Virus record (IMG/VR): IMGVR_UViG_3300027749_000049
Coordinates: 32,001 to 96,000 of that record
DNA: 64,000 bases
Source: a virus
Direction: 5' to 3' (one strand)
Below the pieces are notes generated by a model. It saw only the letters and a list, made by a program, of their open reading frames with translations, ran no database searches and was not told the origin of the DNA. Positions 37,675 to 50,990 of the stretch are shown piece by piece. Every line of letters begins with the position of its first letter. The stretch's first letter is position 1. The translations under genes were made by a program, and so were the position numbers.

Positions 37675-37777
37675 ACTCGGCCGGCTCGGTCTCCCTAGTC
37701 CCAGTTGTTAATAACTTTATTTTTCCGTGTCAAAAATTATACTTATATTTGTATTAACCAATCTAAACCAACCAAAC

Positions 37778-37990
37778 ATGACAGAAGAACAATCGCTAAT
37801 TTTCAGCCAGGTGTTAGACACCAATTGGCAAGTTAAAGAACTAATGGACGCCAACAAATGGCTCGAGTCTTTTGAGAAAGTAAAAGAGTTAAATGCCTTA
37901 AAGCAGAAACTTAAAGAGTCAATGGGCGCGGCCGCGTACGATAAATTTATTACTACTGGCCAGAAAATGTTTGCCTCAAGTCAAGATTAA
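37778..37990 (+). CDS. Hypothetical early protein
   Basis: ATG 37778 directly after an early promoter cassette. Confidence 0.7.
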   Translation: MTEEQSLIFSQVLDTNWQVKELMDANKWLESFEKVKELNALKQKLKESMGAAAYDKFITTGQKMFASSQD

Positions 37991-38013
37991 TTAACCCTTA
38001 ACCAAACTTAACC

Positions 38014-38199
38014 ATGAAGAAGAAAATCAAATCATTTATCGAACGATTAGCCGGTCTTGACCAGACAGCCGGAACCCCAGTAAACTTGGAATTTGGCGGC
38101 GGTCCACGACTACAGAGCACAGTGTTACCGGATGAGACCCTAGGCTTCAACGAGTTTTGGGAAAGGGTATATAAGCTCAACGGTCAAAAGACTCCCTAG
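38014..38199 (+). CDS. Hypothetical early protein
   Basis: ORF with an A/C-rich leader. Confidence 0.55.
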   Translation: MKKKIKSFIERLAGLDQTAGTPVNLEFGGGPRLQSTVLPDETLGFNEFWERVYKLNGQKTP

Positions 38200-38251
38200 T
38201 CCCAGTGTTATACCTAATTAATTATTAATCAACCCATAAAACAAATCAACT

Positions 38252-38560
38252 ATGCAAGAATACAAATTAGAACTTGGAGAAGACGAATATCAAGTAACAC
38301 TTGAGTTTGGTAAATACCATGGAAACGGAAGAACTGCAATTACTGTTGTAGATGCAACGTTCGGTGAAGACCTTCTAGTAGCTACGGTAAATATACCGGA
38401 AGCAAGTTTGGAAGAAGGAGAAACTGTAATAAAAGATTATTCAGAGAACGAAGGAATCCTAAAGTTCTTAGTCGAGAATAAGATCGTTAGTAAACCAGTC
38501 AGAACCGTAAGCACAGGTTTTGTACAATGTCAGGTGGTTAAATTATTAATTAATCCTTAA
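38252..38560 (+). CDS. DUF4313-like protein
   Basis: Y.GNGRTAI...VATVNIP...IKDYSENEGILKFL. Confidence 0.6.
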   Translation: MQEYKLELGEDEYQVTLEFGKYHGNGRTAITVVDATFGEDLLVATVNIPEASLEEGETVIKDYSENEGILKFLVENKIVSKPVRTVSTGFVQCQVVKLLINP

Positions 38561-38564
38561 GCCT

Positions 38565-38936
38565 ATGAAGAGTATCAAAGTTCGATTTAATTTAGGAGCC
38601 GGTAAAAACTTTATGAAATGGAAGATTGAAAGACCGGACGGTAATGTATCATACCACTCGCCAAAGGAGGTTCAACTCGTAATGGCAGGTTGCGTGTTAA
38701 AAAATCAAAGGTCCACTGCACTTAAAATATTTCAAGGAGCAAATAAAACTGTCTGCTCTTGGATACTATGTGAGAGCATAGAAATTAGGGTACCAACGAT
38801 TTCAAAGATAAACGAACTAGATCGGGTTTCTTATAATCCAAGAGTAACACCCAATTGGATCTTTCAAGGTTCGGTTGCGGATGGAACCCGATTTAATAAT
38901 TTGGTAAGCTTAGATAATAAAGTTTATAATTGTTAA
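38565..38936 (+). CDS. Hypothetical phage protein
   Basis: 123 aa; VRFNLGAGKNFMKWK...VSYNPR. Confidence 0.7.
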   Translation: MKSIKVRFNLGAGKNFMKWKIERPDGNVSYHSPKEVQLVMAGCVLKNQRSTALKIFQGANKTVCSWILCESIEIRVPTISKINELDRVSYNPRVTPNWIFQGSVADGTRFNNLVSLDNKVYNC

Positions 38937-39006
38937 TAACTTTATTTTCAGGTCTCAAACCCTTTTGTTATATTTACAATCTAAACCCCTAAAAACCAAA
39001 CCAATC

Positions 39007-39252
39007 ATGGCAAAAAAAGAATTCACAGTAAAACAAGGGCTAGCAGTCCAAGCCGATAACATGGCGTTCTGGAAAAAACTCTTAAAGAAGAAACACTATG
39101 CAACATTAGAAGAAGTTGTTGCTACACGAAATAGAGAGATCAAAGCTCGAGACGGTTATGAGGTCTATCGCGGTTCAGATATAAGTTGCGCAGTGCAGAA
39201 CTTGTTCTATATTTCTGGAGAGTGTGACTCATTAATTCCAGTGGAAGACTAA
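39007..39252 (+). CDS. Hypothetical early protein
   Basis: ATG after a promoter cassette; terminator at 39276-39305. Confidence 0.65.
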   Translation: MAKKEFTVKQGLAVQADNMAFWKKLLKKKHYATLEEVVATRNREIKARDGYEVYRGSDISCAVQNLFYISGECDSLIPVED

Positions 39253-49073: not shown

Positions 49074-49095
49074 TCCTTATATAATACACACTCTA

Positions 49096-49126
49096 AGAAG
49101 GGGTCCTCAACAGGGACCCCTTTTTT
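49096..49126 (+). terminator. Intrinsic terminator closing the early module
   Basis: AGGGGTCC-TCAACAG-GGACCCCTTTTTT. Confidence 0.8.
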
Positions 49127-49130
49127 GGGT

Positions 49131-49265
49131 TTAACCTTGACCTACATTGCGCTTAACATAGTACTTACTGTTCTTGCTTACTGATGTCTTCTTTTTAGAG
49201 TGGACACCAGGTCTGCGACGCTTGGCTTTGGCTACCCGATTGGTTGTGGTTGACTGTTTGGCCAT
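49131..49265 (-). CDS. Small highly basic protein (44 aa, not in ORF track)
   Basis: MAKQSTTTNRVAKAKRRRPGVHSKKKTSVSKNSKYYVKRNVGQG. Confidence 0.65.
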   Translation of the reverse strand: MAKQSTTTNRVAKAKRRRPGVHSKKKTSVSKNSKYYVKRNVGQG

Positions 49266-49397
49266 TAGTTAAATCTATATTTTTATACTATTTAATCCCA
49301 AAAACCGTGCAGTCCCGGCGAGGACCCTGGAATCGGCCCCAGGCCATGGGGATTTTCGTCACACAGTACTATCCTCGCCCCGAATATAAATAACCAT

Positions 49398-49799
49398 ATG
49401 AAAGAAGCTTCTACATCAGACATTAGTTTTGTCCGGTTCTGTATTGCAGAATTAGGGATCGAAACAAGTCCCAATATCAGGATAGGCGATGACCACCGTA
49501 AGGCGCAAGAGCACCGAGCTATGGGTTACTATAGTCCAGCAGATAACTTGATCTGGGTGTTACGCGGTAGTCGGGTACCTGCAGACTGGTATCGAACCCT
49601 AGCCCATGAATTGGTCCACTGGCGCCAGCGCGAGCTAGGCCAAGGTTTGGACGGTGCAGACGGTAGCGAAATCGAGAATGAAGCTAACTCTAAAGCAGCA
49701 GTACTCTTACGGGAATGGGGTAGAAGAGATGAATTAATTTATGTCTTACCTAATGAGGCGCAACCGGCTGACCCCCAAGTAGAGCCTGCGACCCCATAA
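49398..49799 (+). CDS. Zincin-like metallopeptidase
   Basis: RTLAHELVHWRQ...ENEAN; exact TATAAATA at 49385. Confidence 0.75.
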   Translation: MKEASTSDISFVRFCIAELGIETSPNIRIGDDHRKAQEHRAMGYYSPADNLIWVLRGSRVPADWYRTLAHELVHWRQRELGQGLDGADGSEIENEANSKAAVLLREWGRRDELIYVLPNEAQPADPQVEPATP

Positions 49800-50415
49800 T
49801 CAGGTAGCTTAAGTCTTCCTTTAACTCTGCCCTGTATTCTTCCTGATACAGGGTTTTTTGTATAACATGCAGTTCAACACCGTGCCAGACCAGGAATCTC
49901 TCTAGAATCTCAGCACCCGCAAACCTGGCCAGCCTGTCCGGGGTCTCAACTATAACCATGCTTATCTGCTTGCGTAACACTAAGTCAAAGATCTTGTCTA
50001 GCCCAGACCTGCCGACTAGGCTACCAGCCTTACCGACCTCCGCAATTACCTGGTCTACCCTGATCCCGGCCGCCGTGCAGTAGGCTAGCACCCGGTCCTG
50101 CTGAGCCTGCAGCCGGGTTCGGGATGAGACGCCGGCCGCGCCCTGGTCCGGAATTCCCGCCGCCCGGCAGTAGACTACGACTTCCCTAGACTGGGGTAGT
50201 TTACTCCCTAGTAGCTTCAAGAGGTCCTGCTTGTCGTAGTAGATCCGGCCGTTGATCTCGTTCTTCCAGTGTCTTAGGGTACCGGCTTTAACGTAGCGGT
50301 CTAGGGTCTTTAAGGAAATACCTAGGAATTCCGCGGCCCCCTTCTTGTACACGAGCTCGCCGGTTGGGAACTCGGTTAGGGGTCTAGAGTCTGGGGTCTG
50401 GGCTGGTTCCTGCAT
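49750..50415 (-). CDS. IS607-type serine recombinase (HTH plus resolvase domain) with an altered catalytic motif
   Basis: AAEFLGISLKTLDRY HTH; VVYCR...; VIAEVGKAG; VIVETPDRLARF; ELKEDL. Confidence 0.8.
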   Translation of the reverse strand: MQEPAQTPDSRPLTEFPTGELVYKKGAAEFLGISLKTLDRYVKAGTLRHWKNEINGRIYYDKQDLLKLLGSKLPQSREVVVYCRAAGIPDQGAAGVSSRTRLQAQQDRVLAYCTAAGIRVDQVIAEVGKAGSLVGRSGLDKIFDLVLRKQISMVIVETPDRLARFAGAEILERFLVWHGVELHVIQKTLYQEEYRAELKEDLSYLIMGSQALLGGQPVAPH

Positions 50416-50429
50416 GGGGTTATTTATCT

Positions 50430-50990
50430 ACTGCCCGGCCTGCCCGCTTGGACAGCCCCCGGCCCCGGGTCCAGCAGTGTCCATATACTTCTCGAGTCCG
50501 GGCCCCCTCTAGAGCCCGGGAGCCTGCTCGGGTCCGTGGAGGCCGCGGTCGCCGTACTCCCTAGTCCCCATGAATGCACAGCTTGTACCCTTTGGGCGGT
50601 GGCAAGCAGGGGTACTCCCTAGTCCCACGGGGCCGGGGTCAGGGCTGGGCTCGGCTGGCCTGGCAGGGGTACTCCCTAGTCCCGAGCCGGGCTGGCCTGG
50701 TTGGGTAGAGCCGGGCTGGCTGCAGGTACTCCCTAGTCCTGGGTAACCAGGACATGGGCCTGCCCTAGACTTGGCTAGTCTAGTAGTCAGGGTCTATAGG
50801 ATAGGGTTCTGAATAGGGTTGGGTATAGGGTTGGGTATACGGGTTATTTTTCTTTTTATGTATATAAGTAGACAGAGTCTTGCCTGGAGAGTTTCTTCTT
50901 AGATTAGTATCTTTACTTAGAGTAGTAGGGCGCGCCTCTAAGCTTTGGGACGCAGGCATACCCACGGCCAGGACCCGGACCGATTGGGTA
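50430..50990. repeat. GC-rich non-coding island with four 15-bp direct repeats at 57-58 bp period, hairpins and G-tracts
   Basis: GTACTCCCTAGTCC(C/T) at 50554, 50612, 50669 and 50726; CTAGAC..GTCTAG hairpin; ATAGGGTTGGGT tandem units at 50801-50845. Confidence 0.8.

Follow-up and report, generated by a model that had tools for sequence, protein, structure and literature searches.

An exact, strand-pure DNA word in an uncultured freshwater phage is probably a docking or nicking site of an IS607 TnpA-like protein that has lost its cutting residue

Introduction

It has been known for decades that phage DNA can carry programmed signals on one strand, for instance the nicks of T5, phiKMV and tf. 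Oriented or regional sites are also known from DNA-binding proteins: BldC and Xis line up head-to-tail on direct repeats, and about 25 sites serve RacA to mark a single region of the chromosome. Here, we describe a short word, CTCCCTAGTCCC, that recurs on a single strand within a 64,000-nucleotide stretch of DNA from an uncultured freshwater phage (IMG/VR record IMGVR_UViG_3300027749_000049, positions 32,001 to 96,000; this whole stretch is referred to as the window). The word is found at, upstream of and within a gene for a protein that resembles TnpA of IS607. It is probably a docking or nicking site of this TnpA-like protein, whose cutting residue has been lost.

In the available text of PMC6188088, the ends of IS607 are described as carrying short directly repeated motifs that are bound cooperatively by spreading TnpA dimers, and the motifs of IS1535, which are spaced by 10-11 bp, as nucleating a cooperative spreading filament. 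The available part of PMC3517423 describes 14 exact 9-mers in phage tf, all on the top strand, with similar positions in its relatives and an uneven density; the nick word of these relatives differs by one base (TACTGTGAC versus TACTATGAC), and the nick consensus of phiKMV is CGACxxxxxCCTA/CTCCGG. A motif enriched on one strand in 61 phages, WACTRTGAC, is given in the corresponding portion of PMC11780129. In the same parts of these two papers no enzyme is named for the tf and phiKMV nicks, and the function of the nicks is called unknown.

The present locus has traits in common with each of these systems. As in IS607 TnpA, a winged-helix domain is followed by a serine-recombinase fold and helix E, with a conserved D-R-x-x-R motif, and, as the available descriptions of IS607, IS1535 and ISC1926 have it, a short asymmetric directly repeated motif lies by the gene. 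The differences are an alanine in place of the serine, no tnpB and a single-copy, syntenic gene that is not mobile, together with sites that are exact, spaced by 56-58 bp (10-11 bp in the available account of the transposon motifs) and dispersed over 13-25 kb. The nick motifs of tf/LUZ24-like (TACT/RTGMC), phiKMV-like and T5 phages, as the same excerpts describe them, are likewise exact one-strand words with about 4-16 copies and an uneven distribution; they too are kept across relatives with little nucleotide similarity and have one-base dialects, and the string TACTCCG is common to our word and that of phiKMV. In contrast to them, the word described here occupies one gene block, forms tandem arrays of fixed period, is tied to a transposase-like gene and is known from sequence alone. 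BldC, the lambda-Xis-type excisionases and RacA belong to the same DNA-binding fold class as the N-terminus of the TnpA-like protein but are without a recombinase domain; the ram sites of RacA are palindromic, and none of the three has a 57-58 bp period. FtsK-orienting polar sequences (KOPS) and the Chi sites of RecBCD are also short oriented words; they are genome-wide and oriented with replication, whereas our word is local, its orientation to genes is not conserved and the GC skew shows no turn. A literature search found nothing in print, among the papers listed, on the word or on the serine-less TnpA-like family.

Copies of the word in the window

The word CTCCCTAGTCCC is present in eight exact copies, starting at 37691, 38192, 42031, 42400, 46960, 50557, 50615 and 50672, all on the + strand, and a ninth copy with one mismatch is found at 50729 (+). 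The mean number of matches in 100 dinucleotide-preserving shuffles was 0.09, and none of the 100 reached nine. Three shorter cores (CTCCCTAG; 47716, 48497 and 50204) raise the total to 12 on the + strand and 0 on the - strand. Our scan of the window thus recovered the set that a first-pass annotation had reported (eight perfect copies, one with a single mismatch and three 9-mer cores, all on the + strand) and added a thirteenth copy that it had missed, the G variant CTCCGTAGT at 47023 (+). The selected core is [A/T]CTCC[C/G]TAGT, with 13 copies on the + strand and none on the - strand within 13 kb of the window. There are no copies of this core in the remainder of the 128,004-bp record, and a search of both strands of the record with up to two mismatches to the 12-mer gave nothing beyond the set in the window; a background word occurring in both orientations across the genome is not what is seen. 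A rough calculation from base composition gives a chance expectation of ~0.5 copies of the 9-mer per strand, and the empty - strand is therefore ordinary background and not avoidance. The signal is the 13 selected one-strand copies within 13 kb, rather than the missing copies on the other strand.

Within the region, the only one-mismatch variants of the core have T for A at the first position. A logo built from 181 copies from 19 loci confines the information to 10-11 bp, with a weak G/T before and A/C after. The word is a quasi-palindrome, K-ACT-C-C-S-T-AGT-M, with the symmetry broken by positions 4 and 7 and, where it is C, by the centre.

Four copies form an array (GGTACTCCCTAGTCC(C/T); 50553-50740, +) with measured spacings of 58, 57 and 57 bp, in keeping with the earlier description of four phased copies at the right island. 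The array lies 142-330 nucleotides upstream of the start codon of the TnpA-like gene, which runs on the - strand with its start 142 nucleotides away, and its spacers are GC- and G-rich and unconserved overall. A core copy, ACTCCCTAGT (50203-50212, +), is antisense within the TnpA-like gene itself, at the codons for residues 68-71 (LLGS). Three further copies are in the gene for a RecA-fold ATPase (RadA/DnaB/KaiC-like; 46769-47899, +), which is a core gene of the module: one in the poorly conserved N-terminal linker (46960-46971, +; residue 64, read as S-L-V), a G variant, ACTCCGTAGT, 63 bp after it (47022-47031, +; residue 85) and a core copy, ACTCCCTAGT (47715-47724, +; residue 316). The other core gene (47955-49073, +) encodes a 372-residue protein that we call DUF932-like solely on the basis of language-model look-alikes; it carries the core copy TCTCCCTAGT (48496-48505, +; residue 181).

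The remaining copies lie to the left. The solitary copy at 37691-37702 (+) is intergenic, 17 nucleotides past the stop codon of the open reading frame (ORF) 37156-37674 and a GC hairpin, and is directly followed by an early promoter module. The TAG of the solitary copy at 38192-38203 (+) serves as the stop codon of ORF 38014-38199. A third solitary copy (42031-42042, +) is intergenic, between the hairpin GAACCGGC-TTTG-GCCGGTTC, which precedes it, and the next early promoter, whose TTGTTAATAAC box it abuts, and the copy at 42400-42411 (+) is within ORF 42133-42552 (phrog_1987), where it reads L-P-S. Strong upstream hairpins (<= -8 kcal/mol) accompany 25% of 104 solitary copies compared with 14% of controls; a hairpin ahead of the word is a tendency, not a rule.

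The word in related phages

A two-copy pattern search found 14 viral contigs, and searches guided by the TnpA-like protein, the ATPase profile and the DUF932-like profile gave 24, 31 and 31 loci, respectively. The loci come from related phages, so that locus counts are not counts of independent events, and their gene calls are greedy ORF calls. The word is strand-pure in 11 of 11 whole records (that of the window and ten relatives), with 4-16 copies in each, and all copies lie within about 5-26 kb of records of 49-270 kb. For example, G001 (270 kb, 100% complete) has 10/10 copies on one strand within 8.2 kb and G002 (253 kb, 94% complete) has 13/13 within 11 kb; G003-G005 and G007-G010 are likewise confined and one-stranded. 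In 13 less redundant loci 104 copies are on the majority strand and one is on the other, and the 30 true ATPase loci, several of which are near-identical contigs, give 286 versus 3. A genome-wide guide of the KOPS or Chi kind, as considered earlier, is at odds with copies that keep to about 5-26 kb even where the record reaches 270 kb.

The gene order ATPase, DUF932-like gene, TnpA-like gene (reverse strand) and site cluster is kept down to 31% identity of the TnpA-like protein. The word and the TnpA-like gene are found together in 24 of the 24 loci obtained with the TnpA-like protein and in 27 of the 30 true ATPase loci, the other three (L061, L062 and L068) ending before the place of the gene; L070, which is not a true ATPase homolog, has neither. 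Clusters or arrays lie within a few hundred base pairs upstream of the TnpA-like start in the window and in 10 of 12 relatives examined. A copy is inside the TnpA-like gene in 10 of 13 loci, at codons that are not homologous (LLGS in the window and GTTES in L035). Among neighbouring copies less than 150 bp apart, 25 of 29 pairs have a spacing of 56-58 bp, with such pairs at several places. The dispersed copies are more evenly spaced than random in G006 (P = 0.017) and G009 (P = 0.038) and not in G010 (P = 0.61) or the window (P = 0.80), and even spacing of this kind is not robust. In distant clades ACTCCGTAGT takes the place of ACTCCCTAGT.

The first-pass annotation had argued that selection acts on the word as DNA, citing two copies inside ORFs in different reading frames. 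The frames do differ (CTC CCT AGT at 42400, L-P-S; xxC TCC CTA GTC at 46960, S-L-V), and the relatives bear the argument out: synonymous positions are kept across proteins of only 50-70% identity. The genic copies sit at fixed places, namely ATPase residues about 64, 85 and 316 and DUF932-like residue 181, and all of those in these two genes read xxC-TCC-[C/G]TA-GTx with identical synonymous positions. The ATPase-linker copy is kept in nearly all lineages, in either orientation, the position at residue 316 in at least seven lineages and that at DUF932-like residue 181 in four of the 13 lineages examined. At the site corresponding to 42400, the close relative L015 has the G variant CTCCGTAGTCCC, which is kept despite a Pro-to-Arg change. 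Intergenic copies account for 50 of 104, compared with roughly 20% expected from coding density, and three copies provide the TAG stop codon of the upstream gene. The positions of the dispersed copies in the left part are not conserved between clades, which indicates turnover with a maintained number.

The key DISCRIMINATING result comes from G006 (locus L099), in which 16 of 16 copies share the strand of the TnpA-like gene, whereas the ATPase and DUF932-like genes are on the other. The genes themselves have not turned: 22 of 23 best-hit gene pairs between G006 and the genome of the window are on the same strand, including an 11-gene late block and the module. The ATPase-linker copy of G006 is in the same place but inverted, reading T-T-E-S instead of S-V-V, and the sites are still clustered upstream of the TnpA-like gene. 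A whole set that flips while the genes stay unchanged indicates that selection keeps the copies parallel to one another and not to transcription or genome layout; what is selected is agreement among sites. The flip weighs against readings at the RNA level, readings based on the non-template strand and readings in which packaging or entry is tied to layout, and it fits a parallel protein assembly or a situation in which all nicks fall on one strand. The directional signal for DNA entry or packaging that had been proposed for the word is weakened by it, as gene order and orientation are unchanged in G006.

The TnpA-like family has no close relative among the GenBank phage records. A megablast search of 14.5 kb against the GenBank phage records gave no match, with near-identical records possibly lying outside the searched set. 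A tblastn search with the TnpA-like protein matched 19 of 50,697 GenBank phage records, including annotated IS607-type elements, none of which reached 35% identity, and the ATPase had six weak matches among GenBank phage records. The two-copy pattern was found at six loci in bacterial genomes; only L072 is a relative, and the other five are unrelated tandem repeats.

The TnpA-like protein

The TnpA-like gene (49750-50415, -) encodes 221 residues comprising a MerR/Xis-type winged helix and a serine-recombinase fold in which the YARVS motif reads YCRAA. Pfam, PHROG and NCBIfam all place the protein with IS607 TnpA: the Pfam matches are HTH_17 (7.1e-09) and Resolvase (9.5e-12), and the NCBIfam IS607 model NF033518 scores 96.1 bits, which is under its cut-off of 110. 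The AlphaFold model has a mean confidence (predicted local distance difference test, pLDDT) of 78.8. According to Foldseek, it is similar to the IS607-type catalytic domains 3lhk, 6dgc and 3lhf, with template-modelling (TM) scores of 0.75-0.77 when normalised by target length, and its N-terminal part matches the BldC-DNA and RacA-DNA structures (6ama, TM 0.74; 5i44, TM 0.65).

Profile alignment to 3lhf places Ala86 opposite the nucleophilic Ser of YARVSS. Position 86 is Ala in 22 of the 23 sequences of alignment A1 and Ser in one (P0069); in 17 sequences derived from the loci it is Ala in 14, Ser in one (L047), Pro in one and Asn in one. A regular expression applied to 146 library representatives found, two residues after the Arg, Ser in 78, Ala in 10 and another residue in 13, with no match in 45; the Ser-bearing sequences are lower-scoring canonical TnpAs with R-V-S from a search of 1.84 billion proteins. 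The family proper has 13 representatives at E values of up to 1e-30. Other residues are retained: Arg84, Asp160, Arg161 and Arg164 are invariant in A1, and YCR and ETPDRLAR are kept in the distant clade. The clade with 'GCS..T / YCRVAGTTE' has the G variant only (0 C and 7-11 G copies in five loci), and that with 'G[IV]S.KT' has mostly the C variant. No tnpB-sized ORF was found beside the TnpA-like gene in the window, and in all 24 loci the gene is single-copy and follows the ATPase and DUF932-like genes at an unchanged place.

Function of the word

We tentatively favour the reading that the word is a cis-acting recognition site of the phage's own IS607 TnpA-like protein, the serine nucleophile of which has been lost. 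Binding, and each step that follows from it, is what we infer here from the sites and the gene. The protein would nucleate on the cluster or array by its own promoter and on the copy inside its own gene, which would imply autoregulation, as well as on the copies dispersed through the early and replication block. It would assemble head-to-tail, as IS607 transposases and BldC do on direct repeats, so that all sites would have to point alike and in no particular direction relative to genes. The outcome could be an architectural or silencing complex over the block, or the positioning of a strand-specific cut.

Docking of this kind is suggested by the invariable co-occurrence of gene and word, by the clustering of sites at and inside the gene, by a modelled DNA-binding fold of the type that reads direct repeats, by a motif variant that tracks the clade of the protein and by the G006 set, which is inverted with its mutual co-orientation retained. 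The fixed 56-58 bp spacing, with pairs at several places, points to protein geometry. A sharp, asymmetric site of 10-11 bp with no flanking information suits a single winged-helix domain.

Several points weigh against this assignment. The link to the gene is one of synteny among related, non-independent phages, and no locus covering the place, in either the 31 ATPase-profile or the 31 DUF932-like-profile loci, is without the TnpA-like gene; presence and absence therefore do not assign the reader of the word, which could equally be the ATPase, the DUF932-like protein or a host factor. Exact sites of this kind are more usual for nucleases than for regulators. Docking explains a strand purity of 100% only weakly, and we know of no looping or bridging protein that requires co-orientation of sites kilobases apart. 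The 57-58 bp spacing corresponds to 5.5 helical turns, compared with the 10-11 bp of the IS1535 motifs, and regular arrays are absent in the G-variant clade. Lastly, the match of clade and dialect comes down to only about two evolutionary events, and the C and G variants co-occur within single genomes.

Somewhat less probable is a reading modelled on T5, phiKMV-like and tf/LUZ24-like phages, in which virion DNA would carry programmed nicks at the word, made by a separate nickase that keeps to one strand, the choice of which would be arbitrary. The signature is alike, with 4-16 exact copies per record, a single strand in 11 of 11 records and C/G dialects; sites within the region are exact, a G006 set that has switched strand beside unchanged genes suits a rule of 'any strand, but the same one', and the GC-rich spacers would hold the 57-nucleotide segments annealed between close nicks. 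The array form gTACTCCGTAGT has TACTCCG in common with the phiKMV consensus (rough chance 0.01-0.02). Known nick motifs, however, are spread over the genome, whereas the word covers about 5-26 kb of up to 270 kb, and neither the 56-58 bp spacing nor the tie to the TnpA-like gene is explained by nicking. A Pfam scan of the 34 ORFs between 33.7 and 54 kb gave no nuclease domain. Four of the 24 contigs with the TnpA-like gene (L016, L024, L032 and L033) end ~120-500 nucleotides from its start codon, against a rough chance expectation of 0.25; physical breaks are a possible cause, but so are low coverage of GC-rich DNA and strain variation in the spacers. We rank docking by the TnpA-like protein above an independent nickase, and the two can be combined. 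These two leading readings correspond to two options of the first-pass annotation, protein loading, with the IS607-like HTH protein as the binder, and nicking.

A combination within one molecule, in which the TnpA-like protein would itself be a site- and strand-specific enzyme that cuts one strand hydrolytically at the word, seems improbable. The protein would dock on the quasi-palindrome ACT(C)-C(C/G)-(T)AGT as on a miniature crossover-like site with a central CC (GG opposite) or CG; the invariant Arg/Asp/Arg pocket would cut, and the asymmetric positions 4 and 7 would choose the strand.

We consider it just as improbable that the copies are replication signals, either origin iterons or helicase/primase loading sites, read by the ATPase or the DUF932-like protein. 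The word always accompanies these two genes, it is in the ATPase linker in the window, in 10 of 12 relatives and in L099, and direct repeats by replication genes with an AT-richer stretch (50840-50920) resemble the layout of an origin. A spacing of 57-58 bp is not the usual phasing of iterons, though, the region is GC-rich, the cumulative GC skew has no turn at the array and copies spread over 13-25 kb do not make an origin. The flip in G006 would invert strand-specific priming relative to the same genes, and no initiator or primase was recognised in the ORFs scanned.

A role in transcription or RNA, as a sigma-factor promoter element, an ops/nut-like non-template element or an RNA processing site, is very unlikely. 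In most lineages the word is on the sense strand of co-directional early genes, 50 of 104 copies are intergenic and two phage sigma factors are encoded in the region (39874-40824 and 42612-43340), but all 16 copies in G006 are antisense to the same genes. No second element is conserved at any distance from the word, and the next ATG is 15 to >400 nucleotides away. Several copies follow an intrinsic terminator or lie directly upstream of the early promoter module, and so may not be transcribed, and others are antisense inside the TnpA-like gene. The fold of the array does not exceed that expected from composition (z-scores of -0.9 on the + strand and -0.18 on the - strand), and a structured RNA at the array was rejected on these values. 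Least credible of all is an active IS607-type mobile element or cassette system with the copies as its ends, remnants or recombination sites: the gene is of the IS607 TnpA type, such elements have directly repeated end motifs and the central CC of the C variant is GG opposite, the IS607 exchange dinucleotide, but the nucleophile and tnpB are missing, all 24 loci, down to 31% identity, have the gene once and in syntenic position, and similarity is limited to 10-11 bp.

An exact, strand-pure word physically linked to one conserved DNA-binding protein is a rare handle, and a compact set of sites on 13 kb with a tandem array is suited to footprinting. If the TnpA-like protein reads the word, a lytic jumbo phage would clearly have domesticated an IS607 transposase, one with a defined regulon or architecture. 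Should the word be nicked, nick sites would be linked to a candidate specificity factor, and if the TnpA-like protein does the cutting it would be the first identified enzyme behind programmed phage nicks and would bring new chemistry to the serine-recombinase fold.

Other features of the region

In ten of ten lineages examined, the GC content of the TnpA-like gene and of the region upstream of it exceeds the local background by 10-25 points. Convergent with the gene and overlapping its 3' end by 50 nucleotides is that of a 133-residue protein with an HELVH motif (49398-49799, +) and weak matches to zincin metallopeptidases; it is present in most of the closer relatives and in four of nine more distant ones (L010, L013, L032 and L033). 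On the - strand, TAGATAAATAA (50428-50435) lies 5 nucleotides before the TnpA-like ATG, and TAGATAAATA occurs seven times in the record; by this counting alone, GATAAATA before the ATG is a possible T4-style late promoter, in which case the protein would be a late one. One spacer of the array only is conserved, that nearest the TnpA-like gene (50569-50610, GCACAG..GTAYCC..TTGGGCG; the same in L041, L045 and L047), and it may be the TnpA-like promoter or the site of a second protein.

A CRISPR-like array was considered and rejected, as the constant part is ~16 nucleotides and the spacers are low-complexity and G-rich. The idea of cassettes with breakpoints at the word was also rejected after comparing homology blocks between the window and six relatives: the one gap in gene content checked, 38548-38984 in the window compared with its close relative, is not at a copy of the motif. 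The 10-mer is presumably also part of the Widom 601 nucleosome sequence. The GC-rich island to the left (33782-35631, GC 0.49) has four minus-strand ORFs with no Pfam match, and the word is absent there. One metatranscriptome run, X1, contained a tenth of the sampled words, on short contigs from relatives (90-99% identity) that carry no end or strand information. The relative L072 is a 254-kb sequence binned in a metagenome-assembled genome labelled uncultured Bacteroidetes, a weak hint to the host phylum.

A composite early promoter module, AATTGTTAATAACTTT then ATTTTTTAGTGTCAAA then TTTGTTATATTTG, occurs in ~10 copies between 37056 and 46227. Its TTTGTTATATTTG box fits what we take to be the Bacteroidota -7 element, TAnnTTTG, and its near-palindromic GTTAATAAC box is a possible operator. 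Another promoter-like class, T(T/G)GGTATATTA (39303, 45481, 47918, 50984, 51248 and 52297), precedes the DUF932-like gene, tRNA-like RNAs and the gene at 52346; one of the two phage sigma factors may recognise it. An Rfam scan gave nothing but the tRNA-like genes to the right of the array. Between the array and these genes, at 50800-50845, ATAGGGTT is repeated three times (GATAGGGTTCTGAATAGGGTTGGGTATAGGGTTGGGTATACGGGTT), followed by an AT-rich stretch and then by the first tRNA-like gene.

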